The translations under genes and the position numbers were made by a program. The notes beneath the pieces were generated by a model. It was not told the DNA's origin, did no database searches, and was given only the letters and a program-made list of their open reading frames with translations. This document shows, piece by piece, positions 3,300-51,098 of a DNA stretch of 64,000 nt; the first letter of the stretch is position 1, and each line of letters begins with the position of its first letter. The stretch is from Candidatus Nomurabacteria bacterium. GTDB lineage: Bacteria; Patescibacteriota; Minisyncoccia; Phycocordibacterales; UBA9973. Location of the stretch: the NCBI GenBank assembly GCA_943357245.1, contig CALRGH010000001.1:13456-77455 (forward strand), given 5' to 3'.

Positions 3300-3427
3300 G
3301 AAATTTTTTCACGCTTCGCGTAAAAAAACTTTCTGAACCGAATTTTGTGGGTCAAAATTATGGCCGGAAATTTTTTCACGCTTCGCGTAAAAAAACTTTC
3401 CGACACGATTTTTGTGGGTCAAAAATC
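3300..3427 (+). repeat. tandem direct duplication (67 + 61 bp) immediately upstream of tRNA-Thr; each copy contains the palindrome ACGCTTCGCGT
   Basis: GAAATTTTTTCACGCTTCGCGTAAAAAAACTTTC(T/C)GA(AC/CA)CGA(A)TTTTGTGGGTCAAAA is read twice in tandem. The second copy abuts the tRNA 5-prime end and is likely a duplicated promoter/leader. Confidence 0.8.
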
Positions 3428-30262: not shown

Positions 30263-30577
30263 ATGCTTGACAAATATATTTTAATATGCTATTATACCAA
30301 TAAACCATACAGTATGAAAAAGATAAAAATAGGAATGAATTCTTTGCTTTACTTTGCAAAAAAAGTTACCGAAACCGTTTCATTTATGAAGGAAAAAACA
30401 TTGATTAAAGCAGGTACCACATGGGAAATCGTTGAACCAGGCCCCGGTCATCTTGACAGCGGAGTGAGTTTAAAAAATATTGAAACCGGAAAAAGAATTT
30501 ATATTCATACACAAAGAGAATTTGCGGCGATACTATTAGATGAGAGCCATGAAATTTATGTTATAGAAAAACAATAA
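30263..30577 (+). CDS. hypothetical small protein (104 aa)
   Basis: ORF followed by three successive hairpins. Confidence 0.4.
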   Translation: MLDKYILICYYTNKPYSMKKIKIGMNSLLYFAKKVTETVSFMKEKTLIKAGTTWEIVEPGPGHLDSGVSLKNIETGKRIYIHTQREFAAILLDESHEIYVIEKQ

Positions 30578-30623: not shown

Positions 30624-30683
30624 TTTCGCGTTGGCCTGGGTCCCGATTTTCATCGGGGTGACACAGAGAACAATAACAAAAAA

Positions 30684-30762: not shown

Positions 30763-31455
30763 CTAACTCCACTTCTTTGCCACAAGCGCAGCCTTAGCCG
30801 CTTCTTGTTCTGCCTCCTGTTTTGATTTCCCTTTTGCACTACCGAGCAATTCTTTGCCGACATAGACACCGATAGAAAATTGCTTATCGTGATCAGGACC
30901 AGATTGCGACAATACTTTGTACACCGGCGTGATGCCCATGTGTTCTTGTGCTTTTTCTTGGATCAAACTTTTTGGATCTTGCCACAATTTTTCTGCAACG
31001 ATTTGCTCGGTGAGTGGCAATAAATTTTGTGCAATAAAATCACTCGCCGCATCATAGCCGCGATCAAGATAAATCGCGCCGATAACTGCTTCAAAGGTAT
31101 TCGCAAGAATATAGTGACGCGCCTTGCCCAAATCTTTTGATTCACCGCGAGAGAGCATGAGATGCTCGTTCATATTTAATTTGCGCGCAACATCTGCGAT
31201 AGTATGTGAGTTCACAAGGGCAGCGCGATATGCGGTGAGTTCGCCTTCATTTTTCGTCGGATATTTTTTGTATAAAAACGACGTGACGACAAGTTCAAGA
31301 ACCGCATCGCCCAAAAATTCTAAGCGCTCGTTGTGGGAAAATCCAGTCTTCGGATTTTCATTGATATAGGACCGGTGCACAAATGCTTGCAAGAGTAAGT
31401 CTTTATTTGCAAAATGTACACCTATTGATTGCTCAAATGGAGTTAGATCTTTCAT
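30763..31455 (-). CDS. rnc: ribonuclease III
   Basis: RNase III signature ERLEFLGDAVLELVVTSFLY and a C-terminal dsRBD (KQEAEQEAAKAAL). Confidence 0.92.
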   Translation of the reverse strand: MKDLTPFEQSIGVHFANKDLLLQAFVHRSYINENPKTGFSHNERLEFLGDAVLELVVTSFLYKKYPTKNEGELTAYRAALVNSHTIADVARKLNMNEHLMLSRGESKDLGKARHYILANTFEAVIGAIYLDRGYDAASDFIAQNLLPLTEQIVAEKLWQDPKSLIQEKAQEHMGITPVYKVLSQSGPDHDKQFSIGVYVGKELLGSAKGKSKQEAEQEAAKAALVAKKWS

Positions 31456-37241: not shown

Positions 37242-37790
37242 GACTTCTTCTTTCTCTCTTTTCCTGTTTTTAACAAGTGAATACAATTCAATGACTTCAT
37301 CTTGATATGTCGTCTTTGATAAAGTACCGTCCTCTTTTTCTCGTGCAAATGGTCTACTAGGTCTTCCAAGTGCACTGTCTAAATAAGAAACTCCGGACAT
37401 AACTCGTTCAAAAAAAATCTCTTCAGGAAATTGCTGCAACACTGTAATTAATTGTTCAACATCATTCCGTACGACACCTTCATGATTTTCACTCCAATAA
37501 CCAAGAAGAGCTTGTAAGTGTGTTTGTGAAAACCAAAATGGATTGAGCACATATTGCGCGTATGTTTCTCGTGCTTGTTCTTTGTGGATAAGTCTTCGTG
37601 ACCACTCTTTTGCTTGAGTTCCACCTCCAGAATAATAAAAAATACAGCCGCAGGCAAAAGGAAATACGACAAGCATATAGTAACCGTACCCGAGCATGTT
37701 TGTAGAAAAGACGATAGCAAACACAACAGCCGCAACGAAACAAAACACTGAAATGAGAAAAAGGAGGTTATTATTTTCTTTTTTATTCAT
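37236..37790 (-). CDS. hypothetical membrane protein (184 aa, 3 TM helices)
   Basis: TM helices LLFLISVFCFVAAVVFAIVF and YYMLVVFPFACGCIFYY. Co-linear ORF. Confidence 0.5.
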   Translation of the reverse strand: MNKKENNNLLFLISVFCFVAAVVFAIVFSTNMLGYGYYMLVVFPFACGCIFYYSGGGTQAKEWSRRLIHKEQARETYAQYVLNPFWFSQTHLQALLGYWSENHEGVVRNDVEQLITVLQQFPEEIFFERVMSGVSYLDSALGRPSRPFAREKEDGTLSKTTYQDEVIELYSLVKNRKREKEEVI

Positions 37791-37875
37791 GTTAAAATTT
37801 TTTATTACTATACATTTGTCTTACAGAAATGACAAGCCCTTCGCCGGAAATATCCTTTGTGGTACAGTAGTACGT

Positions 37876-39630
37876 ATGACTCCCGAACAATTATCTCCAT
37901 TACGCCACACGCTCGCTCATTTACTCGCGGCCGCAGTCGGCAGTATCTATAAATTCGACAACATAAAGCTGACACTCGGTCCTGCGATCGACAACGGCTT
38001 TTATTATGACATCGACATGTGCGGACAAAAAATTGCCGACACCGACCTGCCAAAAATCGAGAAGAAAATGCGCGAACTGCTTCCGAAATGGACGGAATTC
38101 ACCCATGAGGAAATGAGCAAAGACGAAGCATTGGCATTCTTCAAAAATGAATACAAAGCCGAACTGATACACGAGATCGACGCACGGGGAGAAAAAATAA
38201 CGGTGTACACCTGCGGAGGTTTCAAGGATTTGTGTCGTGGCGGTCACGTAGAAAATCCTGCAGAGGAAATTGCGAACGCTGGATGGAAATTAGACCGCAT
38301 TGCAGGCGCGTACTGGCGCGGTAGTGAAGAAAACCCAATGCTCACGCGTATTTATGGGCTTGCCTTTGAATCGCAAGAAAAATTGGAAGAATACGCAAAC
38401 CAACAAGAAGAAGCAAAAAAGCGAGACCATCGCAAACTTGGTACCAACATGGAACTCTTTGCTTTTTCAGATCTTGTCGGCGCAGGTCTTCCCCTTTGGC
38501 TTCCAAACGGCACAGTGCTTGTGGAAGAATTAGAGAAACTCGCGAAAGAGTCTGAATTTCATGCTGGTTATGACCGCGTGCGCACACCGCACATAGCAAA
38601 AGAACAAATGTATATTACGAGTGGCCACTTACCTTACTATGCAGATTCTATGTACCCACCGATGGAATACGAAGGTGGCAAATATTATTTGAAGGCGATG
38701 AATTGCCCGCACCATCACCAAATCTTTGGCGCAACACCAAAATCATATAAAGACCTTCCCCTTCGTCTCGCTGAATACGGCACGTGTTATCGTCATGAAA
38801 AATCTGGCGAACTCTTTGGTCTGATGCGTGTACGTACCCTCCAAATGAACGATGCACATATTTATTGTACCGAAACACAATTTGCTGATGAATTTCGCGC
38901 GGTAAATGAATTGTATTTAAAATATTTTAAAATTTTCGGCATCGACAAATATATCATGCGTTTTTCAACACACGATCCAAAAAAGCGCGGAGAAAAATAT
39001 CTCAACGAACCAGAACTCTGGAAAAAGACAGAAGACATGGTACGCCAAGTACTTATTGATTCAAATATTCCGTATGTTGAAGTACAAGATGAAGCTGCAT
39101 TCTATGGACCAAAAATTGATGTGCAAGTCTGGAGTGCAATCGGTCGCGAATTTACACTTGCAACAAACCAAGTAGACTTCGGGGTACCTGCACGCTTCGG
39201 TCTTACCTATACTAATAAAGAAGGTAAACAAGAAACACCGCTCTGCATCCATCGCGCACCACTCGGTACGCATGAACGCTTCATTGGATTCTTGATTGAA
39301 CACTATGCAGGCGTATTTCCTACATGGCTTTCTCCATTTCAAGTTGCCATCGTTCCAGTCAAAGAATCTCATGATGCGAAAGCGAAAGAAATACAGCAGA
39401 TATTACGGGGTCATATGATTCGTGCAGAGCTCCACGTGGCTGGCGATAGTCTTGGTAAGCGAATCCATAAAGCAAAAGATATGCACACACCGTACATCAT
39501 CATCATTGGTGATACAGAAATCGAGAGTGGTAATCTCACTATCGAAAGACGAGACGGAACAAAACTAGAAAATATACCACTTGATACATTTCTTGCGGAT
39601 ATACAAAAAGAAATTTTTGATAGAAACTAG
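37876..39630 (+). CDS. thrS: threonyl-tRNA synthetase lacking the N-terminal TGS domain
   Basis: Editing-domain motif HTLAHLLAAAVGSIYKFDNIKLTLGPAIDNGFYYD. Class II core HRKLG...FRNE-type motifs. Anticodon-binding C-terminus. The start is set at the ATG at 37876 (MTPEQLSPLRH) because the upstream extension overlaps the convergent gene. Confidence 0.88.
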   Translation: MTPEQLSPLRHTLAHLLAAAVGSIYKFDNIKLTLGPAIDNGFYYDIDMCGQKIADTDLPKIEKKMRELLPKWTEFTHEEMSKDEALAFFKNEYKAELIHEIDARGEKITVYTCGGFKDLCRGGHVENPAEEIANAGWKLDRIAGAYWRGSEENPMLTRIYGLAFESQEKLEEYANQQEEAKKRDHRKLGTNMELFAFSDLVGAGLPLWLPNGTVLVEELEKLAKESEFHAGYDRVRTPHIAKEQMYITSGHLPYYADSMYPPMEYEGGKYYLKAMNCPHHHQIFGATPKSYKDLPLRLAEYGTCYRHEKSGELFGLMRVRTLQMNDAHIYCTETQFADEFRAVNELYLKYFKIFGIDKYIMRFSTHDPKKRGEKYLNEPELWKKTEDMVRQVLIDSNIPYVEVQDEAAFYGPKIDVQVWSAIGREFTLATNQVDFGVPARFGLTYTNKEGKQETPLCIHRAPLGTHERFIGFLIEHYAGVFPTWLSPFQVAIVPVKESHDAKAKEIQQILRGHMIRAELHVAGDSLGKRIHKAKDMHTPYIIIIGDTEIESGNLTIERRDGTKLENIPLDTFLADIQKEIFDRN

Positions 39631-39640
39631 TAAATAGAGC

Positions 39641-39698
39641 AAAAGCAACCGTAGTCAATTTTTCGCCATGGCGAAAAATTGACTACGGTTGCTTTTTT
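39641..39698. terminator. 25-27-bp-arm perfect palindrome centred on CCATGG followed by T6 (thrS terminator)
   Basis: AAAAGCAACCGTAGTCAATTTTTCGCC-AT-GGCGAAAAATTGACTACGGTTGCTTTT then TTTT. Confidence 0.8.
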
Positions 39699-39734
39699 AT
39701 TTAACCGTGGTACTATACTAATAAACGAAAAACC

Positions 39735-40430
39735 ATGATTTTACAATTTAATACTGACATTCCCTGCCCTACTTGTACCACAGAAACACTTGTTGAAAAT
39801 ATCGAATTTGAAGATAGAACTGACAAGTGGCGTTCATGGGGATACCTTTGTACAAGCTGTCACAAAAAATACAAACTCACGCAATTCAAAGAATCCCACG
39901 AAAAATTCAGACAAAAGATGACCGCTTTCTTGGAAAAAAATTACTTCATTGTTCTTGTGCGAGATCTTAATTTCAATGAAGTATGCCATCACGGAAGTAT
40001 TACCTCGTCAGATGTATCTTTGTTTAGAAAAGGAACAATATTTGCGCGAAGTTATTATGATGACAACGCAATGAGAGTAACTGACCCAGAAGTTGCAATA
40101 AAAAGTTTCGCGCATGGTCCGAAATATATCTTGCGCGGAAAGAACAAAAAATCTGTTCCTAAAATAAATCCGGCATTTTCTTTTCCTCGTGGATTTTCTA
40201 TGCAACAAATCAAGCATTACCCATTGCGTCGCCAAGGGAAAAAAGGGTCGGAATCATTCCATGTTCACCAATTACGACAAAAAGAATCTCTTGCTATAAC
40301 CTTGTATCCTTTTGATCACAAGAAGATATCACCTGACCAACTTACTCGTTACTACATTCCGCTTTATTTAGGGAAAGTAATAGGAAGAAAAAAACCAGCA
40401 TCCAACAAAAAACCTCTCACAAATACGTGA
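39735..40430 (+). CDS. hypothetical protein with N-terminal zinc-ribbon (CPTC...CTSC), basic C-terminus
   Basis: Two CxxC pairs in the first 45 residues. Terminator directly downstream. Confidence 0.5.
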   Translation: MILQFNTDIPCPTCTTETLVENIEFEDRTDKWRSWGYLCTSCHKKYKLTQFKESHEKFRQKMTAFLEKNYFIVLVRDLNFNEVCHHGSITSSDVSLFRKGTIFARSYYDDNAMRVTDPEVAIKSFAHGPKYILRGKNKKSVPKINPAFSFPRGFSMQQIKHYPLRRQGKKGSESFHVHQLRQKESLAITLYPFDHKKISPDQLTRYYIPLYLGKVIGRKKPASNKKPLTNT

Positions 40431-40440
40431 GAGGTTTTTT
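40413..40440. terminator. bidirectional terminator CCTCTCAC-AAATAC-GTGAGAGG flanked by A6 and T6
   Basis: Read directly. Confidence 0.75.
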
Positions 40441-40619
40441 TATAAAGAAATTTTATTTTTCCAATAGTCATTATTTTCACTATAGTATTTTTGAATATCC
40501 TGAAGATGTCTATTATAAAATTCTTTTTCAAATACATCTATTGCCATTCCTGAAACACTTTTCTCATCCAATACCCACATCTGTTTTAATATTTTATTTA
40601 ATTCCTGATCTTGTGCCAT
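40440..40619 (-). CDS. unannotated small ORF (59 aa, below the ORF-track cutoff), hypothetical
   Basis: MAQDQELNKILKQMWVLDEKSVSGMAIDVFEKEFYNRHLQDIQKYYSENNDYWKNKISL. AGAGGA Shine-Dalgarno sequence 9 nt upstream of the ATG at 40619. The stop abuts the bidirectional terminator. Confidence 0.4.
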   Translation of the reverse strand: MAQDQELNKILKQMWVLDEKSVSGMAIDVFEKEFYNRHLQDIQKYYSENNDYWKNKISL

Positions 40620-40633
40620 GTTTTTTGTATCCT

Positions 40634-40700
40634 CTATTTACTATTTACTACTCCGACCTATGTCGGAGTCCGACGAAGGTCGGACTAACTATTTACTAAT
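40634..40700. repeat. inverted copy of the double-hairpin element seen at 15123-15185, abutting the gyrB stop codon
   Basis: TACTCCGACCTATGTCGGAGTCCGACGAAGGTCGGACTAACTATTTAC at 40649-40696 is the exact reverse complement of 15123-15170. Confidence 0.85.
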
Positions 40701-42743
40701 TTATATATCAATCTCCGCTAACTTTGCATGTGTTTGGATAAATGATTTGCGAGGCGCAACATCCGAACCCATCAACATGTCAAACACTTTATTTGCTTCT
40801 TCGGCATCATCGACATTCACTTGTTTCAAAATACGTCGAGCAGGATCCATTGTTGTTTCCCATAATTCTTCTGCGTTCATTTCTCCGAGACCTTTATAGC
40901 GTTGGAGGTGGAATTTACTTGCCTTCACCTCTTTCTTTGCATCTGTTTCTTCATCAGTTACCACATCATCTCCACCCTCACTTTCGTCTGTCTCTTCGAT
41001 TTCTGCATTGTCGCCAGTAATCGCCATTTTTTCTTCATCAGTATACGCATACCACAGTTCTTTACCTCGCTTTATTTTATAAAGTGGTGGTTGCGCAATA
41101 TAAATATGTCCGGCATCAATGAGTGGTTTGAAGTGACGGTACAAGAGCGTCAAAATAAGCGTACGGATGTGTGCGCCGTCCACGTCGGCATCGGTTGCGA
41201 TAATGATTTTGTGATAACGCAATTTTGAAATATCAAACGTATCACCGATTGCGGTTCCCATCGCAATAACCAAGTTTTTAATTTGTTCAGAGGCGAGCAT
41301 TTTATCAAGACGCGCACGTTCGATATTTAGGATTTTGCCACGCAGTGGCAAAATCGCCTGCGTGCGACGATCGCGTCCCATTTTTGCCGTACCTCCAGCG
41401 GAATCTCCTTCCACAATAAAAATTTCAGATTCTTCTGCACTCTTTGAACCACAGTCTGCAAGCTTGCCCGGAAGCGTCATACCTTCAAGCGCACCTTTGC
41501 GGAGCACGGAATCCTTTGCTGCTTTTGCTGCTTTACGCGCGCGAACCGCCAAGATCACTTTGTTAATAATCATCTTTGCTTCGTCTGGATGCTCTTCGAG
41601 AAATGCTTCAAATGCTTCCCCGAAGACCGTTGTGGTTGCGCCTTGTGCTTCAGGAGAACCCAATTTCCCTTTTGTCTGTCCTTCAAATTGAATTTCACGA
41701 AGTTTTACCGAGACGACTGCGGTCAATCCTTCAAGGACATCATCGCCCGTAAATGCGCCATCAGATTCTTTGATGAAATTATTTTTTTTGCCGTAGGTAT
41801 TCAAAAGACGCGTAAGTGCTGTTTTAAAACCAATCACATGAGTACCTCCTTCTTGCGTATAAATATTGTTCGCAAATGGCAAGATGCGACAAGAAATGTC
41901 ATCGATATATTGGAGCGCAATTTCAACGCCAACATCATTCAATTCTTTGTCCACATAAAAAATAGTATCCTGTACTGTTTTTTGGTGCAGGTTTTGGTGG
42001 CGAATAAGCGATACCAATCCTCCTTCGAAATAAAAACTGTGCGATGGCGCTTCAATGCCTTGGTCTTTCAAATACACTTCATCATCAAGATTTATTTTAC
42101 CTTCGTAATTACGTGCATCGATAACCGTGATTAATAATCCTTTGACTAAATATGCTTGCTGACGCATGCGACTGACAATAATATTCCATTCAAATTCTGT
42201 TGTTGTTTTAAAAATTTCTTTATCAGGCTGGAAGGTCACAATGGTGCCGTGCAATTTCGAAGAACCGACTTTTTTGACGGCTGCTTTTTTCTTACCACAC
42301 GCATATTCTTGCATGTGCTTGCCACCATCACGATGCACTTCTACTTTTGTGTATGTGGAAAGTGCATTCACTACCGACGCACCAACGCCGTGCAAACCGC
42401 CAGAAACTTTGTAGCCGTCACCACCAAATTTACCACCGGCGTGGAGCGTCGTCATGACTGTTTCAAGTGCGGATACTTTTGTTTTGGAATGAATGTCCAC
42501 TGGAATACCGCGACCATTATCCGCAACGCGCACATGATTGTTTGGTAGGAGTGCAATCTCAACACGGTTTGCAAATCCGCCCATCGCTTCATCGCGAGAG
42601 TTATCAAAAATTTCCCATATCAAATGATGCAAGCCTTCAGAGCCTGTTCCTCCAATATACATACCGGGACGTTTTCGTACCGGTTCGAGTCCTTCAAGGA
42701 CTGAAATATCTTCTGCGGAATATGATCCTTTCTTATCTACCAT
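40701..42743 (-). CDS. gyrB: DNA gyrase subunit B (type IIA topoisomerase ATPase subunit)
   Basis: GHKL ATPase motifs EGLHHLIWEIFDNSRDEAMGG and GLHGVGASVVNALS. Toprim EGDSAGG. C-terminal tail. 680 aa. ParE cannot be excluded, but gyrB is more likely. Confidence 0.85.
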   Translation of the reverse strand: MVDKKGSYSAEDISVLEGLEPVRKRPGMYIGGTGSEGLHHLIWEIFDNSRDEAMGGFANRVEIALLPNNHVRVADNGRGIPVDIHSKTKVSALETVMTTLHAGGKFGGDGYKVSGGLHGVGASVVNALSTYTKVEVHRDGGKHMQEYACGKKKAAVKKVGSSKLHGTIVTFQPDKEIFKTTTEFEWNIIVSRMRQQAYLVKGLLITVIDARNYEGKINLDDEVYLKDQGIEAPSHSFYFEGGLVSLIRHQNLHQKTVQDTIFYVDKELNDVGVEIALQYIDDISCRILPFANNIYTQEGGTHVIGFKTALTRLLNTYGKKNNFIKESDGAFTGDDVLEGLTAVVSVKLREIQFEGQTKGKLGSPEAQGATTTVFGEAFEAFLEEHPDEAKMIINKVILAVRARKAAKAAKDSVLRKGALEGMTLPGKLADCGSKSAEESEIFIVEGDSAGGTAKMGRDRRTQAILPLRGKILNIERARLDKMLASEQIKNLVIAMGTAIGDTFDISKLRYHKIIIATDADVDGAHIRTLILTLLYRHFKPLIDAGHIYIAQPPLYKIKRGKELWYAYTDEEKMAITGDNAEIEETDESEGGDDVVTDEETDAKKEVKASKFHLQRYKGLGEMNAEELWETTMDPARRILKQVNVDDAEEANKVFDMLMGSDVAPRKSFIQTHAKLAEIDI

Positions 42744-42840
42744 AAATATTTTTTATACCTCTATTTTAGCATATTTTGATGTAAAAACCTAGCATTTTTT
42801 ACACAAAAAAAGCCTTATTTATAAGGCTTTTTTTGTGTAA

Positions 42841-45800
42841 TTAAGGTGTATCTGATGGTGGAGTATCAGTTGGAGGAGTTTGCTCTGCTGGAGGTGTCTC
42901 GCTTGGTGGATTCTCATCAGTTGGAGGGATATCGCTCGATGGGGTGTCTTGTGGAGGAGTGCCGGTTGGAGGAGTTTCTGATGGAGGCACTTCTTCGGTT
43001 GGCGGTGTCTCTCCTCCTCCAGATGGCGGAAGTGTCTGTCCTGCGTTTTCAATAAGCGCACGAAGTTGGTCTTTATTGATACACACATCTTCAACACACA
43101 ATTCTTTTGTCGTAATTTTATCGGAGAAAATATTTACCAGTCCATTCGTTGTAGATGCGAGCCATGCGCGAAGTGCACCAACCAGAGAATTATCTTCATT
43201 CGTAAGGTCTGCAATATTTGTAATCTTTATATCAAGTTGTTTTACTGCTGCCATCAAAATACCATTCACCGACACTTGATCAATCACATTGCCCCACATG
43301 AACGCCGGATTAACTTCGTCAGCGATATAGCCGATGCGTACTTTTGCAAGCGGAGAATCAGTGCCGTATCCTTCCACTTCATTTCGGTATCGGAATGTAT
43401 GTAATGGTGCATCCAAAATTAACTGCAACGCATTTGTATAATCAGTATAGTCTTCGATATTTTGTTTTGTATCACGAGTAGATGTTTGTGTACCGATAAC
43501 GGTACCTGCCGTATCATTTGCATTTGTTGGTGCTGCAGTATGGATGCGCATATTGCCCGAGTTGTCTTGCCACACGTATCCTGCGGTACCAGATTTTTTC
43601 TGGAAGTTGATCGACCCTGCACCAGTGTTTGTCGCATTTGTATTTCTACCAAGGGTAATATAATTTCCAGCTGCACCATCTCCTAGATCACGATTAGCAC
43701 CATTTAAATGTCCCTCTGCGGTAACACGCCATTTTTCAGTAAGTGTCTGGAGTGTTGTTCCTGATGCCCCTGCATCAGATGTTAGAAATGCAATAGCTCC
43801 TCCGACAGCATTCCCTGTTGCCTTACCACTAGCAAGATTAAGACCTGCGCCGTATTGGTTTGTTCCTGATCCACCACTTGCATTAATAATTATACCTTGA
43901 GGACTCGCCGATGTCACTCCGTTACCAAAGTATGCATCAATTGCAGTTCCACTTCCTGTACTTACCACCCATTGATCGTTCGCAGTTGCAACCGCAGTAG
44001 TACCACTACCAATAACAATCGATCGAGTAATACTATTAGAAGAAACATCTGCGCGGTCACCAATAAGAATATTATTACCACCCGTGGTAATAGTTGCACC
44101 TGCACTGTATCCAAGAAACGTATTTCCTGTAGCAGTTGTGTTCGCAACACCAGCTCCTTTACCAAAAAATGAGTTTGTTCCCCCTGTACTTACAAGTCCT
44201 GCATTCATACCAACAAATGTATTATCACCTGCTGTTGTGTTCGCATCTCCAGCAAGATAGCCGATAAAGGTATTATTGTTTCCTTCTGTGTTCAACCGAC
44301 CAGCACTTTTGCCGAAAAATGCATTGCCAGTACCAGTACTGTTTGTTTTACCCGCAATATCCCCAACAAATGTATTGCCGTCTGCGGTTGTATTTCCCAT
44401 CCCCGCACCCCCCCCAATAAATACATTACTATCTCCTGTTGTATTAACAGAACCCGCTGTGCTTCCTATAAATATATTTTCCGTACCTGTTGTATTAACC
44501 TCTCCAGCTCTATATCCAATAGCAGTATTATATGATGCAGTGGTAATAGCAGCTCCTGCTGATTTCCCAAGCAGTATATTACTTACACCCGTAGTGATTG
44601 AGTCACCAGTATTATCTCCAAATAAAATATTATCAACACCACCACCTGCGCCATTAAGCGCTGCACCTGCGCCAATAGTCCCTGTAAACACGTTATTATA
44701 AGCGTCTGCAGTCACATCTCCACTACCACTTACACCAACAGCCCCCCAGCTAACACCACTATATACTTGAAATTCACCATCATCTGTATTATAAATAAGC
44801 TCTCCTGCTACTGGAGTTACAATATCGTCACGTCTTGTCGTATTCATACGTGGCAGAAGCACTCCGGAAGTCGATGAAGTAATATCAAGCACTGCTTCTG
44901 GGGATGCTATACCGATGCCGAGTGACTCTGCTCCATCATCCCAAAAAAAGTTACCGTTTTTCGCGATTGTCGTTCCATTAGAAAAGAGTACAGAACCTGT
45001 GTCAAGGGATGGTAACGTTAATTTTCCATTGAATGTATTCCAATCAGTGGACGTGAGAAATCCTTTTGCACCAGTTGCCGCCGCTTGGCCGTTTGTATAA
45101 TCAATAGCAATAAGACCACTTGTTGCATTAAAGTCAGCAGCGGTAAAAGTTGCCGCACCTTTTGTGGAGCCGTCAGCTGCGGCATTCGTAATTGAAATAG
45201 TACCCGAACTATTAGAAAGTGGCGAAGAGAATGTAAGCGAACTCTGCTTACTGTTAAACGTCGTCCAATCGGTTGCTGAAAGATAGCCGGAGACACTTCC
45301 TGTTGCTTGTGAAATTGTCATGATGCCAGTCGAGTTGCTATATGAAAGTGGTATGCTACCTGCGACACTAATAGCACTTCGTGCACGAGCATCAGTGAAA
45401 TACTGATTCGAACCTTCGGTAATATTCGATGTGGTGAGTGTCACCGAACCAGTTGAACCATTGACACTCGTAACGGATGCACCGTTTAGAATTTCCACCC
45501 AATTGGCAAGAACTGTCGCATCGGTGTCTGCAAGTACGTATGTTTTGCTTTGATCAGTACGAATAGCAAGGTCGCCTTGAGTTGCAGAAAGTGCGAGCAT
45601 GGCGACTTGTGATGCGACAACGTACGTATCTGAAAATGAAAGCGACGCAAGTTGAGATGTCGGCACTTTGCCGTTGCCATCAAGTGTCGCAATCCCATCC
45701 GCAACACCTTTCTGTAAACTAATTCGCGCATCGGCACGACTATTTGTATAGTAGAGATTCGTACCTTCATCAATTTCAGTCGTTGAGAGATTAATCGCGC

Positions 45801-47124
45801 CAACTTCGCCGTTAACGGAAAGCACCGAATCTGTAGGGGTAAGTATTTGGACCCAGTTGGAGACGTTTGAATAATCAACAGCTGAGAGTACATAGGTTGT
45901 GTTCGTGTCAGTACGAATTGCAAGATCCCCAATACCAGCGCTTGAAAGCGCAAGCATCGCGGCTTGTGATGCAACGACGAAGATATCACTAATTGCAAGT
46001 GATGAAAGTTGCGACATTGGCACTTTACCGCTCGAATCAAGTGTTGCAACACCACTTACCGCGCCCATGTAGGAAGTCGGTACAAAATCAAGCGTCTGCC
46101 ACGAAAGCGTACCTGATCCGTTGTTTTTTAAATACGATGATGACGCGCCTTGTGATGACGGAAACGAGTACACGACATTATTTAATTTCACAATATTTCC
46201 ACTTGAATCTACTTGAAATTTATCCCCAGAACCAACTGTGAAAAGCGATGCAGGTGACGTATCTCCAACACCAACATATCCTGTCGAAGAAATGCGCATT
46301 CGTTCATTTGCATTTGCATCACCACCAGTGAAAAACTTGAGTGATTCTGTTGCTCCGGCAGTTCCTATTACCAAATCAGAATCACTTGTATATAAATATG
46401 CAGTGTGTGGACCTCCATAAATAAGCGATAAATCATTGTACCCAGAACTATTGATACCAAGATCAACGTAATATGAATCATCATCACCATCATCAGCGGT
46501 TGCAACGAAATCAGACGATGCACTGTCGCCGTCATTCAAGTTTTGAATGTTTACTTGCAAATAACTATCCGTGTTGCCAGAAAAATTTCCCACCACGTTT
46601 GGAAAAATCGTACCGCCGCCGGCTGCGAATGATCGCGCTGCAGTGACATTGCCTTCACTATCAATATTGAGCTTGCTTGCGCCGTCAACTTGAAAATCGG
46701 CGAGGTAATGCGTGCCGGAACCTGTCGCACCTTCGGTGACATTAACGAGTAAACCAATGTACGCAGCGGTGCCAGATTGTGAGACTGTCGGATGAATATA
46801 GTGACCGTACGCAGAACCGGAACTTCCGGATACCGTAGACGTAAACGTTTTTATTCCTGCAAAACTTTGTGCAGATGTATTAACAAGACCTGTGTCTGTA
46901 ATTGACGCATCAGGAATTTCAACAAAACATTCTGCGTCTCCGGGCGCACATGTTGGATCTAATGTTTCATTTTGAAGATAGGGAGATGTAGGCGGTGTTG
47001 CAAAAGCAACAATTCCTCCAGAAAACGCAACAAGAAAAAGCACCGATAAAATTAGTGTTCGATTTGTCCCTTGTTTTATTTTTTTGAGAACAGATTCTTT
47101 AATTGTGCGAATGAGTCTACGCAC
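42841..47124 (-). CDS. giant secreted tail-fibre-like surface protein (1427 aa): signal anchor, duplicated phage-tail-fibre repeats, NxTxG repeat array, peptidase-S74 intramolecular chaperone domain, Pro/Thr-rich C-terminal tail
   Basis: N-terminal anchor TLILSVLFLVAFSGGIVAFA. Two roughly 95-aa internal copies (ATLDSSGKVPMSQLSSLAISDIFVVASQAAMLALS...NWVQI and ATLDGNGKVPTSQLASLSFSDTYVVASQVAMLALS...NWVEI). More than 12 tandem units of the NTTGxxNxFxGxxAG type. C-terminal STRDTKQNIEDY...HTFRYRNE...IGYIADEV matches the S74 chaperone motifs (SDxRLKxNI, GFIAQEV). The final 60 aa are PPT/PPS repeats. Confidence 0.8.
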   Translation of the reverse strand: MRRLIRTIKESVLKKIKQGTNRTLILSVLFLVAFSGGIVAFATPPTSPYLQNETLDPTCAPGDAECFVEIPDASITDTGLVNTSAQSFAGIKTFTSTVSGSSGSAYGHYIHPTVSQSGTAAYIGLLVNVTEGATGSGTHYLADFQVDGASKLNIDSEGNVTAARSFAAGGGTIFPNVVGNFSGNTDSYLQVNIQNLNDGDSASSDFVATADDGDDDSYYVDLGINSSGYNDLSLIYGGPHTAYLYTSDSDLVIGTAGATESLKFFTGGDANANERMRISSTGYVGVGDTSPASLFTVGSGDKFQVDSSGNIVKLNNVVYSFPSSQGASSSYLKNNGSGTLSWQTLDFVPTSYMGAVSGVATLDSSGKVPMSQLSSLAISDIFVVASQAAMLALSSAGIGDLAIRTDTNTTYVLSAVDYSNVSNWVQILTPTDSVLSVNGEVGAINLSTTEIDEGTNLYYTNSRADARISLQKGVADGIATLDGNGKVPTSQLASLSFSDTYVVASQVAMLALSATQGDLAIRTDQSKTYVLADTDATVLANWVEILNGASVTSVNGSTGSVTLTTSNITEGSNQYFTDARARSAISVAGSIPLSYSNSTGIMTISQATGSVSGYLSATDWTTFNSKQSSLTFSSPLSNSSGTISITNAAADGSTKGAATFTAADFNATSGLIAIDYTNGQAAATGAKGFLTSTDWNTFNGKLTLPSLDTGSVLFSNGTTIAKNGNFFWDDGAESLGIGIASPEAVLDITSSTSGVLLPRMNTTRRDDIVTPVAGELIYNTDDGEFQVYSGVSWGAVGVSGSGDVTADAYNNVFTGTIGAGAALNGAGGGVDNILFGDNTGDSITTGVSNILLGKSAGAAITTASYNTAIGYRAGEVNTTGTENIFIGSTAGSVNTTGDSNVFIGGGAGMGNTTADGNTFVGDIAGKTNSTGTGNAFFGKSAGRLNTEGNNNTFIGYLAGDANTTAGDNTFVGMNAGLVSTGGTNSFFGKGAGVANTTATGNTFLGYSAGATITTGGNNILIGDRADVSSNSITRSIVIGSGTTAVATANDQWVVSTGSGTAIDAYFGNGVTSASPQGIIINASGGSGTNQYGAGLNLASGKATGNAVGGAIAFLTSDAGASGTTLQTLTEKWRVTAEGHLNGANRDLGDGAAGNYITLGRNTNATNTGAGSINFQKKSGTAGYVWQDNSGNMRIHTAAPTNANDTAGTVIGTQTSTRDTKQNIEDYTDYTNALQLILDAPLHTFRYRNEVEGYGTDSPLAKVRIGYIADEVNPAFMWGNVIDQVSVNGILMAAVKQLDIKITNIADLTNEDNSLVGALRAWLASTTNGLVNIFSDKITTKELCVEDVCINKDQLRALIENAGQTLPPSGGGETPPTEEVPPSETPPTGTPPQDTPSSDIPPTDENPPSETPPAEQTPPTDTPPSDTP

Positions 47125-47195
47125 TTAAAAAGTATACCACTTTTTAAGTGCTAAAAAGGTATAAAGATGTTGATAACGTTGGCAAGGATAGTTAT

Positions 47196-47226
47196 CAAGT
47201 TTATAAAGTTATAAGGTTATAAAGTT
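47196..47226. repeat. left inverted repeat (CAAGTTTATAAAGTTATAAGGTTATAAAGTT) of the four-helix-bundle gene cassette
   Basis: Its partner at 47564-47593 reads CAAGTTATAAAGTTTGTAAAGTTATAAAGG in reverse complement. Confidence 0.7.
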
Positions 47227-47561
47227 TTAATAAATCCTGAGATTATCCTAGATATTTCAGTTGAAAGAATTTCAAGTTTAGCAGCTTGGTCTTTTCGAAA
47301 ATATCGCAACTCAACACCGAGAATAAGCATTGAACGGACTTCCCCACATGACCCCTTTGCAATATATAAAAAATTCTTAAATTCTTTATTTGTTTGACGT
47401 TCAAATCCTTCCGCAATATTGTTCATAATAGAAACAGATGCTCGTTCAATCTGATTTTTAAAAGAGAAATCTTTGCAAACTGAAACATCCTTATAAATCT
47501 GTAACGTTAATTCTTTTGCTTTTTGCCATGCAATAATCTCTTCAAACCTCGTAATTTTCAT
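47217..47561 (-). CDS. four-helix-bundle protein of the 23S-rRNA-intervening-sequence / DGR-Avd-like family
   Basis: 114 aa: EEIIAWQKAKELTLQIYK...NQIERASVSIMNNIAEGFERQTNKEFKNFLYIAKGSCGEVRSMLILG is the characteristic pattern of this family. Confidence 0.8.
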   Translation of the reverse strand: MKITRFEEIIAWQKAKELTLQIYKDVSVCKDFSFKNQIERASVSIMNNIAEGFERQTNKEFKNFLYIAKGSCGEVRSMLILGVELRYFRKDQAAKLEILSTEISRIISGFIKTL

Positions 47562-47563
47562 GT

Positions 47564-47593
47564 CCTTTATAACTTTACAAACTTTATAACTTG
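47564..47593. repeat. right inverted repeat of the four-helix-bundle gene cassette
   Basis: See the entry for 47196-47226. Confidence 0.7.
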
Positions 47594-47599
47594 ATGAAC

Positions 47600-48739
47600 T
47601 TAGCGGACAGTGGCCTTAACCACGTCCGCTGTTTCCTGCTCTAATTTTTTATGAATCGCATTCACTTCCACATCCGTCAGCGTGCGATCAAGTGCACGGT
47701 ACGTGATTCGATATGCATAACTTTTTTTACCAGCACCAAATTTGTCTGCATTTTCGTATTCATCGACGAGCGCCATTTCTTCTGCCATATCACCAACCAC
47801 ATCGCGCACCACGTCAAAATAATTATTCGGCATAAATATTGCGCTGTCGACAATGAAAGAAATGTCGCGCACGATTGCTGGGTACTTACTTACCTCTTTA
47901 AACTTAGTGCCGAGTTTTAATTGCTTTTTTACACGTTCGTCATCACTCCAAAGCAATCGGATATCCGGAAGTTCGGTGCTGATGATTGCTAATCGTTCAA
48001 GTCCAAGTCCAAACGCCCAACCCGTCCATTTTGAGGAATCAACACCAAGTTTATCAAGCACACTTCCCTTCACGACACCTGCACCATTAACTTCAACCCA
48101 CGCACCATTAATTTCCACCTCCATTTCAAGTGACGGATCCGTATACGGAAACGTATCGGGATTAAAACGATATTTAATATCATTACCGAACACTGCCTTT
48201 GCCGTATCTTCCAATACTTTTTCTAAATCAGCGCGCGTGATTTCTCCTTGTTCTTTTGGTATTAAATACCAACCATCGAGCTGATGAAAGACATTCATGT
48301 GACGGCGATCTATTTCATCTTTGCGATACACTTTGCCAAATGCGAACGCGCCAACAGGCTCGTTGTTTGCGATGCGTGCCTTGATTTTTTCATCGTGCAA
48401 ATAGTAATACCACATCACCGTCATTTGCGTACGCAAAATATGATTGTCATCTGCATAGTACGTATCAGATTTTGAACGTGCCGGATGATCCATCGGAAAA
48501 TCAAATAAATCAAATCCAATGTCAGTTGAAATAATTTGTGGCACTTCGATAGTATCAAATGTTGTAAATGCGGGTAGCGCCAAAATTCGCTTCACCATCT
48601 CTCCAATCGGACTGCCGTCTGTCCGCGACAGATCCGGCATGTCCAAATATCGCTTCATGCGAAGCGCTTCTGCGTCTGTCCGCTTGTCCAATTCCGCGAG
48701 TAATCGTGTTTCTTCAGCTGTATCTACCTTAATTTCCAT
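47600..48739 (-). CDS. pheS: phenylalanyl-tRNA synthetase alpha-type catalytic domain fused to a C-terminal FDX-ACB anticodon-binding domain (monomeric, mitochondrial-type architecture)
   Basis: Class II motifs HPARS...FRNE-like and GWAFGLGLERLAIISTELPDIRL. The C-terminal roughly 100 aa (SKYPAIVRDISFIVDSAIF...KKSYAYRITYRALDRTLTDVEVNAIHKKL) match the FDX-ACB domain that normally sits at the PheT C-terminus. The long PheS N-terminal coiled coil is absent. The start is taken at the ATG at 48739 (the ORF-track start at 48748 is TTG). Confidence 0.75.
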   Translation of the reverse strand: MEIKVDTAEETRLLAELDKRTDAEALRMKRYLDMPDLSRTDGSPIGEMVKRILALPAFTTFDTIEVPQIISTDIGFDLFDFPMDHPARSKSDTYYADDNHILRTQMTVMWYYYLHDEKIKARIANNEPVGAFAFGKVYRKDEIDRRHMNVFHQLDGWYLIPKEQGEITRADLEKVLEDTAKAVFGNDIKYRFNPDTFPYTDPSLEMEVEINGAWVEVNGAGVVKGSVLDKLGVDSSKWTGWAFGLGLERLAIISTELPDIRLLWSDDERVKKQLKLGTKFKEVSKYPAIVRDISFIVDSAIFMPNNYFDVVRDVVGDMAEEMALVDEYENADKFGAGKKSYAYRITYRALDRTLTDVEVNAIHKKLEQETADVVKATVR

Positions 48740-48777
48740 ATTGGGCAACTATAGCAAAAATATGAGGTATTTTCCAC

Positions 48778-48812
48778 TCTGTGTCACCCTGAATTTATTT
48801 CAGGGTCCAGGC
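48778..48812. repeat. left terminal inverted repeat / hairpin of the GIY-YIG cassette (TCTGTGTCACCCTGAATTTATTTCAGGGTCCAGGC)
   Basis: The reverse complement of 49106-49140 is CTTGTGTCATCCTGAATTTATTTCAGGATCCAGGC. There are three mismatches, two of which are compensatory within the internal hairpin. Confidence 0.8.
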
Positions 48813-49096
48813 TAAATTTCTAAGTCCTCCCACTGAGGATTATTTGCTTCAATAAAATTTAATTTCCATTTTCTATGCCAATTTTTTAATTGTTTTTCTC
48901 GGACAATAGCAATTTGCACATCATTTGTCTCTTCAAAATAGACAAGTTTGTGCACATTATATTTTTCAGTAAATCCTTCGACAAGATTATTTTTATGTTC
49001 AGATATTCTTCGCCGTAAATTATTTGTTACGCCAATATAAATAGTGCCATTTCTATCTGTTGCTAAAATATATACATAATATTTCTTGTATAGCAT
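48812..49096 (-). CDS. GIY-YIG nuclease-family protein (94 aa)
   Basis: YVYILATDRNGTIYIGVTNNLRRRISEH...KLVYFE is the GIY-YIG motif set (GIY..YIG..R..E). Confidence 0.8.
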   Translation of the reverse strand: MLYKKYYVYILATDRNGTIYIGVTNNLRRRISEHKNNLVEGFTEKYNVHKLVYFEETNDVQIAIVREKQLKNWHRKWKLNFIEANNPQWEDLEI

Positions 49097-49105
49097 AAGT
49101 ATTCC

Positions 49106-49140
49106 GCCTGGATCCTGAAATAAATTCAGGATGACACAAG
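49106..49140. repeat. right terminal inverted repeat / hairpin of the GIY-YIG cassette
   Basis: See the entry for 48778-48812. Confidence 0.8.
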
Positions 49141-49186
49141 ACTAAATATAACATGACATTTCGTCCAAAATAGCTATAATCCTTGT

Positions 49187-50248
49187 ATGTCTCCATTTAG
49201 AAAATCACTCGTATTCATAGGCGACTGTATCATGCTCGCAGCATCATTTTATCTGATGCTTTTTATCCGATTTGGGGCAATACAGGCAGATGTTGTCGCT
49301 GTACACAAAACACCCTTCCTTGTGCTCTTTGGTATTTGGATTCTCTTATTGTATGTATTTGATATGTACGAGCCGAAGTTTTTAAACGTCTCTATTTTTT
49401 CTCTTCGTCACATTGCTATTGTACTCGCAACGCAAACCATAGCCGGCTTCTCTCTTTTTTATCTCGTTCCTTCATTCGGCATCGCACCAAAAACAAATCT
49501 GCTGTTAACGGTCGCCATCTTCGGCATCTTGTTTATTATTTGGCGCCAAATACTTGCAAAGCGAATCGGTATCATCAGAAGCAGTGACCTAGACCAGACA
49601 CACACCCAAGCAATTCCAATCGCAACAATGACAGATGCACTAGCACAAACGTTGTCCGCAAAAAAACAAAGTAATCTCTATGCACTGCCAATGCGCATTA
49701 TTGAAATACTTTTTGCAATCACCATTCTTATCATCACCCTTCCAATTACTCTTGTGGTGATGATTGCCATCAAATTAGAAGACGGCGGAAGTGTGTTCTA
49801 TAAAAATGATCGCGTGGGAAAAAACGATAAGGTTTTTTATTTGTATAAATTTCGATCAATGATCCCAAATGCAGAAACAAATGGCGCAGTATGGGCGCAA
49901 GTAGCTGATACACGCATCACGCGCGTCGGCAGATTCACCCGAAAATTACACATCGATGAAATCCCCCAAATGTGGAATATTTTGCGTGGTGATTTGGCAC
50001 TCGTTGGCCCACGACCAGAACGACCAGAAATAGTGAAAGAATTAGCTGAAAAAATCCCGTATTATGATGTCCGCCACAGTATCAAACCAGGATTTACTGG
50101 CTGGGCACAGATCAAATTCCGCTACGCGCGCTCAGTTTCCGATTCACAGAAAAAATTAGAGTACGATCTCTTCTATATCAAAAATAGAAACTTCTTCATG
50201 GATATCGGCATCATTTTGAAAACGGTGCAGATTATTTTTACGCACTAA
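49187..50248 (+). CDS. polyprenyl-phosphate sugar phosphotransferase (WbaP/EpsL bacterial sugar transferase family), initiating enzyme
   Basis: C-terminal catalytic domain PMRIIEILFAITILIITLPITLVVMIAIKLEDGGSVFYKNDRVGKNDKVFYLYKFRSM...DEIPQMWNILRGDLALVGPRPERPE. Confidence 0.85.
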   Translation: MSPFRKSLVFIGDCIMLAASFYLMLFIRFGAIQADVVAVHKTPFLVLFGIWILLLYVFDMYEPKFLNVSIFSLRHIAIVLATQTIAGFSLFYLVPSFGIAPKTNLLLTVAIFGILFIIWRQILAKRIGIIRSSDLDQTHTQAIPIATMTDALAQTLSAKKQSNLYALPMRIIEILFAITILIITLPITLVVMIAIKLEDGGSVFYKNDRVGKNDKVFYLYKFRSMIPNAETNGAVWAQVADTRITRVGRFTRKLHIDEIPQMWNILRGDLALVGPRPERPEIVKELAEKIPYYDVRHSIKPGFTGWAQIKFRYARSVSDSQKKLEYDLFYIKNRNFFMDIGIILKTVQIIFTH

Positions 50249-50249
50249 T

Positions 50250-51098
50250 ATGTTGTGGAAATCGCTCGTTAAAAAATTGAGCAATGTTGCATACGTATTT
50301 TTGCGACTACACGCATATTTGCCAGCACGGCACACTTCGCGTACCGTACCAAAAACGAATTTCCTCATCGTCACTATTGCCTTCAACAACAAAGATATTT
50401 TGGAAACACAATATTCATACTTACAAGAAAATCTGGAAGATACATTTGATTATTGTATTGCGGACAATTCGAGCGACAAAAATAAAGCCGAGGGAATAAA
50501 ACAGTTCTGCACGAAAAACAATATTTCGTATATCAAAATCCCTGCAAATCCCCTCACTGGAGTTCGCGCAAGCGGTTCGCATGGTGTGGCGCTGAATTGG
50601 GTGTATCGCAACATCATCAAAAAATATAAACCTACGTATTTTGGATTTTTAGATCACGATATATTCCCTCTCGAGAAAACAAATATTATTAGAAAAATGC
50701 GCGGCGGCTACTACGGCATCATTCGCATGCGGCACGCTCCCTACTGGTATTTTTGGCCGGGATTTTCTTTTTTTGAATATGACAAATTTAAAAAATACTG
50801 TTTTGATTTTGCTCCGTACCATGCAGGAAAAAACGGTCTGACATTTTTAGATACAGGTGGCGCAAATTATTACACGATTTCGCGCAAGATAGACCGGAGC
50901 GTGCTCGCGGAGGCCGCGAGCACGCTTATCGATCTTTCAACCGGAAAAGAATGGATTCGCGGCACCGACACGCGTCGCACCTTTGAACTCATCGACAAAT
51001 CATGGCTCCACATGCGCCAAATTTCCTGGCGCGAAGAAAGCTCTGATAAAATGGATGACTACCAAGAAATGTTACGGATTGCGAAAGAATACAAATAA
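50250..51098 (+). CDS. hypothetical protein, possible GT-A-like nucleotide-sugar transferase (DxD-like FLDHD)
   Basis: IADNSSD and FLDHDIF are reminiscent of GT-A DxD motifs. No confident family assignment. Confidence 0.4.
   Translation: MLWKSLVKKLSNVAYVFLRLHAYLPARHTSRTVPKTNFLIVTIAFNNKDILETQYSYLQENLEDTFDYCIADNSSDKNKAEGIKQFCTKNNISYIKIPANPLTGVRASGSHGVALNWVYRNIIKKYKPTYFGFLDHDIFPLEKTNIIRKMRGGYYGIIRMRHAPYWYFWPGFSFFEYDKFKKYCFDFAPYHAGKNGLTFLDTGGANYYTISRKIDRSVLAEAASTLIDLSTGKEWIRGTDTRRTFELIDKSWLHMRQISWREESSDKMDDYQEMLRIAKEYK

Follow-up and report, generated by a model that had tools for sequence, protein, structure and literature searches.

A probable SRM-ssn-SRM cassette in a Candidatus Nomurabacteria genome: a GIY-YIG nuclease gene between inverted hairpin repeats

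We describe a small locus in a 64,000-nucleotide stretch of a Candidatus Nomurabacteria genome (contig CALRGH010000001.1; the window, below, means this whole stretch), in which a gene for a 94-amino-acid GIY-YIG protein lies between two inverted, hairpin-forming repeats. The closest described systems are those of the Ssn family of nucleases and the "Ssn-related motif" (SRM) hairpins (Chenal et al., Nat Commun 2025, PMC11893778). The type member, SsnA of Neisseria meningitidis (NMV_0044/NMB0047), is a 94-amino-acid single-domain GIY-YIG protein of the CDD group cd10448 (GIY-YIG_unchar_3). Its target is the NTS repeat CGTCATTCCCGCGMAVGCGGGAATCYRG, which extends dRS3; the protein binds this solely as single-stranded DNA, cuts upstream of the motif at a distance of a few nucleotides and leaves duplex DNA, RNA and the reverse strand untouched (PMC11893778). 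Three bases on the 5' side of the palindrome are required for cleaving the NTS and a C just 3' of it for binding, and Y6, Y17 and E64 are the SsnA positions that were mutated in that study (PMC11893778). In Neisseria, SsnA reduces transformation by NTS-bearing DNA (PMC11893778). The same authors found SRMs near 71% of the homologs and on both sides of 42%, and they likened the NTS-ssnA-NTS arrangement to an insertion sequence (IS) or to the RAYT/REP systems, as a hypothesis only (PMC11893778).

Compared with these systems, the locus in the window is very probably an SRM-ssn-SRM cassette, whose product would be a site-specific single-stranded-DNA nuclease of the Ssn family recognising the hairpins. 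The features concerned are the following.

Cassette SRM-ssn-SRM, 359 bp: a 94-residue GIY-YIG gene between two inverted hairpin repeats
48812..49096, minus strand: ssn, putative 94-amino-acid single-domain GIY-YIG nuclease of the Ssn family (open reading frame (ORF) and Pfam)
48780..48812, plus strand: SRM-D, hairpin repeat right after the ssn stop codon
49106..49138, minus strand: SRM-U, hairpin repeat 9 nt upstream of the ssn ATG
30634..30665, minus strand: solo SRM without an adjacent nuclease gene, TGTGTCAC-CCCGAT-GAAA-ATCGGG-ACCCAGGC

The nuclease and its two hairpins

The ssn protein matches Pfam GIY-YIG over residues 5-80 (E 3.8e-17), and its Pfam matches are confined to GIY-YIG and the related T5orf172, with no other domain. 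A tblastn search of PLSDB gave a match to two N. gonorrhoeae chromosomes filed as plasmids, and the gonococcal ORF was recognised as an SsnA ortholog by its 94 amino acids, by Y6/Y17/E64 being in place and by the surrounding NTS array. (PLSDB lists complete N. gonorrhoeae chromosomes of 2.17 Mb as plasmids; the locus used here, L180, is NZ_CP119140.1 1880772-1884041.) The window protein is 56% identical to this ortholog over 85 residues without gaps (BLASTP, E 5e-35), which lies below the threshold of E < 1e-10 to Neisseria SsnA used in PMC11893778, applied here with the gonococcal sequence (L180:1504-1788). Residues Y9, Y20 and E67 align with Y6, Y17 and E64 of Neisseria SsnA. In a family alignment of 15 sequences Y9 and E67 are invariant; 12 of the sequences have Y at position 20, 2 have C there and 1 has H. 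A search of PDB sequences with the protein gave no match at E 0.01.

The region of the N-terminal GIY-YIG motif also gave weak matches, to TIGR01453 at 24.2 bits and to phrog_5123 at E 1e-4. These could be read as the mark of a free-standing I-TevI-like homing endonuclease of phages or group I introns that targets the intergenic site between the neighbouring pheS-like and sugar transferase genes. We find this reading hardly credible, given that the TIGR01453 match covers residues 8-38 only and stays far from the cut-off of 56.05, that the protein, of 94 amino acids, has no DNA-binding domain and no intron context, that there was no match in 50,697 phage records, and that the protein is much closer to Neisseria SsnA. 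Membership in a defence system was considered as well and set aside, PADLOC giving just short motif-level matches to UzuA and PDC-S14.

The repeats on the two sides of the gene were delimited by a repeat finder as inverted arms at 48780-48817 and 49101-49138 (38 nt, 89% complementary), with a core of 33 nt at 48780-48812 and 49106-49138 that holds 2 mismatches. A 30-nt arm pattern, with up to 3 mismatches allowed, has 2 matches in the 64 kb against 0 in 100 dinucleotide-preserving shuffles, and a chance repeat is thus excluded. No further arm copy was found in the window by an ungapped scan allowing up to 11 mismatches. Each arm forms a hairpin whose stem has 8 bp and whose loop has 5 nt, ACCCTGAA-TTTAT-TTCAGGGT at 48786-48806 in the left arm and ATCCTGAA-ATAAA-TTCAGGAT at 49112-49132 in the right arm, with folding z-scores of -2.1 to -3.4 as RNA or DNA.

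SRM-D reads forward on the plus strand as TGTGTCAC-CCTGAA-TTTAT-TTCAGG-GTCCAGGC; its stem pairs 48786-48793 with 48799-48806 (DNA fold z-score -3.39) and its last base overlaps the ssn stop codon. SRM-U reads forward on the minus strand as TGTGTCAT-CCTGAA-TTTAT-TTCAGG-ATCCAGGC, pairs 49112-49119 with 49125-49132, and is identical in L080, one of the loci of relatives considered here (L-numbers denote such loci, P-numbers proteins). A covariance model of the family's arms matches SRM-D at 48777-48815 (+) with 41.6 bits and SRM-U at 49103-49141 (-) with 44.1 bits, both window arms having belonged to its training set. The gene is therefore flanked on both sides by hairpin-forming SRM repeats.

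An earlier reading of this DNA from its sequence only had proposed the architecture of terminal inverted repeats plus nuclease, that is, inverted hairpin arm, GIY-YIG gene and inverted hairpin arm. This is real and holds across the family. The same reading had counted three mismatches between the arms, all compensatory. The 35-nt arms in fact differ at four positions: two (C/T and G/A), which are the two core mismatches, are the two sides of one compensated pair, the second in the stem (C-G versus T-A), whereas the remaining two sit at the outer end (TCTG versus CTTG). The arms of L080 differ by the same C-G/T-A pair.

That reading had also suggested a search for extra copies beyond the two arms, and one turned up in the window, the solo SRM, which brings the total to three in 64 kb. 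In its full sequence, TGTGTCACCCCGATGAAAATCGGGACCCAGGC, the outer tags (TGTGTCAC...CCAGGC) are as in the cassette arms and the 6-bp stem is different. Matches of the pattern TGTGTCAY-N16-30-CCAGGC number 3 in the window and 0 in 100 shuffles, so that chance is excluded here too, and the covariance model matches the solo copy with 16.8 bits (E 0.026). It is located between the convergent ORFs 30263-30577 (+) and 30763-31455 (-), the product of the latter being RNase III-like by eye. It also sits between two terminator-like hairpins of this convergent intergenic region. Further matches of GTCA plus a hairpin at 3351, 20689, 37212, 39654 and 46531 lack the 3' tag and were put down to chance, terminators or a separate palindrome. 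The palindrome is a perfect one of 56 nt at 39641-39696 (28+28 without spacer, AAAAGCAACCGTAGTCAATTTTTCGCCA followed by TGGCGAAAAATTGACTACGGTTGCTTTT), placed between the ORFs 37696-39630 (+) and 39735-40430 (+); without a 3' tag, it was ruled out as an SRM.

Hairpins at gene ends call for another explanation to be weighed, namely that these serve the flanking genes as ordinary intrinsic terminators or as stem-loops stabilising RNA and that their inverted layout is incidental. Both arms do fold as RNA as well as DNA, SRM-D stands at the 3' end of ssn, and an RNA-level action of REP-type hairpins is known in other bacteria. We nevertheless consider this very unlikely. No T tract follows either hairpin on either strand and a terminator scan lists neither of them, while SRM-U lies upstream of ssn, in the promoter region between divergent genes, and follows no gene. 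For these reasons the explanation by ordinary terminators, which the sequence-only reading had named among the findings that would speak against it, fails. Additionally, the tags GTCA and TCCAGG, which are not palindromic, keep their sequence and orientation across phyla, which would be superfluous for a terminator, and the meningococcal SsnA does not bind RNA (PMC11893778). A search of Rfam over 47000-51000 at permissive E-values gave nothing on the hairpins and just two chance snoRNA-like matches. The hairpins would be protein recognition sites in single-stranded DNA, not terminators.

Hairpins of the Neisseria system and of other relatives

The likeness to Neisseria goes beyond the protein, a single-domain GIY-YIG of 94 amino acids with the catalytic Y, Y and E aligned. 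In both systems repeats stand on both sides of the gene with oriented tags (GTCA 5' and TCC 3' of the palindrome), and a solo copy is found elsewhere. GTC 5' of the palindrome and C 3' of it are present in both window arms and in the solo copy (GTC-A...T/A-C), and the bases that are critical in PMC11893778 are, to judge from the alignments, invariants of the whole family. Moreover, the covariance model, built from arms of window-gene relatives only, finds the NTS 16 times, with 31-37 bits, in 3.3 kb surrounding the gonococcal ssnA gene, which places the NTS in the same repeat family as the relatives' hairpins. Relatives that are 60-66% identical to the window protein, such as L035 and L006, have flanks that match the Neisseria NTS consensus. 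The two systems differ in the stem, which is CCTGAA/TTCAGG with a 5-nt loop in the window and ATTCCCGCG/CGCGGGAAT in Neisseria, and in the host, which here belongs to the Patescibacteria (candidate phyla radiation, CPR); neither Patescibacteria nor stems of the CCTGAA type are mentioned in PMC11893778.

The difference in the stem has a practical consequence. The published SRM pattern, HGTCWYN(0-2)YYVSBRHN(0-5)WNVSBRGN(0-2)RNCYNB, is a search heuristic and not a definition, and it misses the window arms because the CCTGAA stem violates its V and S positions. In 520 kb of ssn loci it finds 48 sites, versus 276 by a structural scan. By the method of PMC11893778, the window gene would be counted as "not flanked".

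To see how the window arms compare with those of other members we looked at the flanks of relatives. A protein search with the ssn protein gave at least 8000 matches, and a scan of genomes gave 79 loci with relatives at 57-68% identity from many phyla. Their hosts include, within the Patescibacteria, Doudna-, Moran-, Saccharibacteria, Peri-, Wolfe-, Portnoy-, Buchanan- and Gracilibacteria, and beyond them Omnitrophota, Ignavibacteria, Nitrospirota, Elusimicrobiota and alpha-, gamma- and deltaproteobacteria. The common flank pattern is YGTCAY, stem, loop, complementary stem and RTCC(AG) upstream of the gene, and the reverse complement of this downstream. For the counts we required an inward-facing perfect hairpin tagged by GTCA, searched for within 150 nt on the upstream side, and we took the 3' end of the gene from the alignment of the proteins, as some ORFs run on through the hairpin downstream. 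Such a hairpin is found upstream in 65/83 relatives and downstream in 63/82; among the 81 that were readable on both sides, 53 (65%) have it on both and 73 on at least one. The density of tagged hairpins is 5.3 per 10 kb in ssn loci versus 0.44 per 10 kb in pheS loci (454 kb), the latter being the level of shuffled sequence.

The 72 arms that were aligned all have GTCA ahead of the stem, T-C behind it is conserved to at least 90%, and 7 of the 8 stem pairs show changes on both sides; the arms had been preselected for perfect stems, which makes the percentage paired circular and counts against leaning on it. The informative result is that the tags stay constant while the stem sequence varies. 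The suggestion from the sequence-only reading that the hairpin structure is under selection is borne out in this form, with stem pairs that covary across the family around fixed GTCA and TC.

Two stem classes dominate. The first is ATTCCCGC-GAAA-GCGGGAAT and the second, which includes the window, is AT(C/G/T)CTGAA-CTTGT/TTTAT-TTCAG(G/C/A)AT. Protein identity is 60.6% within a stem class versus 54.7% between classes, a difference that 0 of 2000 permutations reach in a statistic inflated by related genomes, and the nearest-neighbour protein has the same stem class in 97% of cases. That the stem class tracks protein similarity fits a putative sequence-specific recognition of the hairpin by its nuclease.

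The relatives' flanks hold some further structures. Tandem half-SRMs, made of the GTCA tag and the 5' half of the stem, occur one to three times at a spacing of ~19-25 nt directly 5' of a full SRM in the ssn flanks of L014, L065, L066, L056, L026 and L081; one such array reads GTCATTCCCG-TACCCTGTT-GTCATTCCCG-TATCCTGTT-GTCATTCCCGCGGAAGCGGGAAT. They may be scars of cutting and repair. SRM loops also accept insertions of 15-40 nt that are themselves hairpins (L080 at 950-1010, L001, L018, L024 and L081). In the downstream arm of L080, the loop carries a nested SRM-like unit of 25 nt, CGTC-CTGAA-CTCGT-TTCAG-GATC, in the same orientation.

Predicted cutting, inheritance and possible mobility

By homology, the ssn protein would be a site-specific nuclease acting solely on single-stranded DNA. 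It would bind its cognate SRM in one orientation, 5'-GTCA, palindrome, TC-3', and cut the bound strand a few nucleotides 5' of the motif, leaving duplex DNA, RNA and the complementary strand alone. The SRMs of the cassette face inward with one forward copy on each strand, which puts the predicted cuts just outside the cassette, near 48772-48780 (+) and near 49139-49147 (-). A third cut is predicted near 30666-30675 (-), beside the solo SRM. The zones at the two ends of the cassette are as follows.

48755..48779, no strand given: zone outside the GTCA end of SRM-D, with the predicted plus-strand cut (position inferred from PMC11893778)
49139..49153, no strand given: zone outside the GTCA end of SRM-U, with the predicted minus-strand cut

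When the window is aligned with L080, the zone at 48755-48779 is hypervariable, with 7 mismatches in 25 aligned bases and a 16-nt indel, and the zone at 49139-49153 has 3 mismatches in 15 bases versus 0 in the next 33, which are small numbers. Divergence amounts to 20-28% just outside the GTCA ends, to 5.8% in the ssn ORF and to 0-3.6% in the other non-cassette flanks, in what is a comparison of a single sequence pair. Divergence is thus raised at the predicted cut zones, and we regard this as suggestive.

The likely role of the protein would be to cut SRM-bearing strands when these are single-stranded, for example in transforming DNA or in replication and repair intermediates. Such cutting would shape recombination around the marked sites, as has been shown for Neisseria transformation.

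Besides the circularity mentioned above, several points weigh against reading the locus as an Ssn system of this kind. A role in transformation presupposes that the host takes up single-stranded DNA. When the palindrome was changed and its structure kept, the activity of the meningococcal SsnA was abolished (PMC11893778), and the specificity proposed here for a hairpin of the CCTGAA type comes solely from the co-occurrence of gene and repeat. Neither the published degenerate SRM pattern nor the NTS pattern has a match in the window on either strand. With three SRMs in 64 kb, where Neisseria has dense arrays, a genome-wide role as in Neisseria, with its hundreds of copies, is not evident here. 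Finally, the nearest NTS copy on each side of gonococcal ssnA faces outward, in contrast to the inward-facing arms of the window and to the layout that prevails among the relatives of the window gene, and the orientation is thus not uniform in the family.

The genes next to the cassette are of the kinds that the sequence-only reading had named.

47600-48748, minus strand: PheRS-like gene, single-chain, with tRNA-synt_2d and FDX-ACB
49187-50248, divergent from ssn: Bac_transf sugar transferase gene

The PheRS-like protein falls just below NCBIfam cut-offs, scoring 245.8 versus 258 for mitochondrial-type pheS and 244.6 versus 300 for the "PheS-related mystery ligase SrmL" model, and its gene has at least 262 metagenomic relatives. 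In the closest of these (L083, 75% amino acid identity), pheS adjoins a block homologous to window 39160-42800. Relative to L083, the window holds in 42841-47561 an extra 1427-amino-acid repeat-rich protein and a 23S_rRNA_IVP four-helix-bundle gene.

The ssn gene is passed on vertically and is under purifying selection. The dN/dS of ssn against L080, whose Ssn protein is 97% identical to that of the window, is 0.085, and the synonymous divergence (dS) is comparable with that of the adjacent transferase gene, at 0.26 in ssn versus 0.16. The cassette probably entered genomes whole, in the manner of an insertion sequence or of RAYT/REP, and in the lineage of the window ssn is by now stably inherited.

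Alternatively, the cassette could be an autonomous, currently active IS-like transposon or homing cassette, whose nuclease cuts the hairpin ends and moves the 359-bp unit, solo SRMs being its non-autonomous derivatives. Much in its layout suits this: the space between its inverted terminal repeats is taken up by one nuclease gene, and the predicted cuts fall at the outer ends, where the sequence just outside is hypervariable against L080. Paralogues on the same contig or in the same genome are 80-90% identical in their nucleotides, with the similarity beginning and ending at the SRMs (two cassettes in L081, two in L005, and the pairs L038/L061 and L054/L059), relatives at 57-68% identity are spread across many phyla, the nested SRM-like hairpin in the L080 arm and the tandem half-SRMs at other loci would be in keeping with it, and the authors of the Ssn study raise the same hypothesis (PMC11893778).

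Despite this we think a currently active element unlikely. No target-site duplication is seen in the flanks, where the sequences that meet at the ends (...CCACTC/TGTGTCA and TGACACA/AGACTA...) contain no direct repeat. Hydrolytic GIY-YIG nucleases form no covalent DNA intermediate, and such a nuclease alone therefore cannot rejoin strands; the inverted SRMs would also give a single cut per strand. The L080 cassette is at the same site, with the dS values given above, the window has one copy of the ssn gene, and identical proteins found in many samples, P0024 on 17 contigs and P0052 on 14, each have one gene context. Among 2.9 million viral contigs there is 1 close relative, and there is none in the 50,697 phage records.

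A search for an empty site among pheS relatives and through identical-protein look-ups found none. The look-ups with pheS (its 382- and 379-amino-acid forms), the transferase and ssn returned the same genome only. The 80 metagenomic pheS relatives that were compared (60-75% amino acid identity) have neither ssn nor a transferase or IVP gene at a distance of up to 3.5 kb; with the transferase gene also missing, synteny is lost and these do not provide a clean empty site. An intergenic alignment with the four closest pheS relatives was uninformative beyond the pheS -10 region.

The proposal of the sequence-only reading that this is a mobile or homing cassette accordingly meets with mixed evidence. 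The restriction of paralogue identity to the cassette favours it, and the fixed contexts, the shared site in L080 and the lack of a target-site duplication do not. Mobility is unproven, and we keep it as a hypothesis.

Two observations concern the contexts of cassettes elsewhere. In the P0052 contexts (L170-L179), TraC-like and PrgI-like genes of a type IV secretion-like cluster stand on either side of the ssn cassette, which is on the opposite strand, and this context is conserved over the 14 contigs from different samples. In L081, the two cassettes bracket a solute-binding-protein gene that adjoins T4SS_pilin genes.

Comparison with established mobile systems can help to place the cassette. 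Like the REP/REPIN-RAYT systems (TnpA-REP, Y1 HUH) and IS200/IS605, it has a small single nuclease gene with inverted hairpin flanks, hairpins that would be recognised as single-stranded DNA and solo hairpins elsewhere in the genome, and as a rule there is one gene copy, inherited stably; PMC11893778 draws this analogy too. It differs in that ssn encodes a hydrolytic GIY-YIG protein, not a HUH tyrosine transposase, so that intrinsic strand transfer is not expected. The protein shows no sign of a HUH Y1 transposase in Pfam, where it matches GIY-YIG and T5orf172 only. IS200/IS605 elements have both their ends processed on one strand, whereas the forward sites of the window cassette are on opposite strands. 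Classical IS elements and MITEs (miniature transposable elements with inverted repeats) share with it the compact unit whose terminal inverted repeats bracket one ORF, but the window cassette has no DDE transposase by Pfam, shows no target-site duplication, and has repeats that are themselves hairpins.

We can offer one more speculative view, which we put forward as improbable. SRM-ssn-SRM cassettes might form a distinct class of very small mobile elements, in which the nuclease nicks each strand just outside its inward hairpin and host replication or repair completes the copying or transfer. Solo, half- and nested SRMs would then be non-autonomous products or scars, and the hypervariable ends the footprint of repeated cutting.

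Meaning for the Ssn family

The type of element to which we assign the locus is already known (Ssn/SRM, 2025). What is new is a hairpin variant missed by the published pattern and a Patescibacteria-like host. The Ssn/SRM system is thereby shown to extend into Patescibacteria-like genomes and into many uncultured phyla. The published SRM pattern is also shown to be blind to many cognate hairpins, a large class with stems of the CCTGAA, GCTGAA or CCGAA kind, and the published figure of 42% for flanking on both sides is for this reason probably an underestimate (53/81, or 65%, here).

On the question of whether these genes are selfish mobile elements or domesticated ones, the locus adds evidence from its boundaries and from the paralogues, short of proof. 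Each pair of nuclease and hairpin would be a potential new specificity for cutting single-stranded DNA, which is where the biotechnological interest of the family lies.

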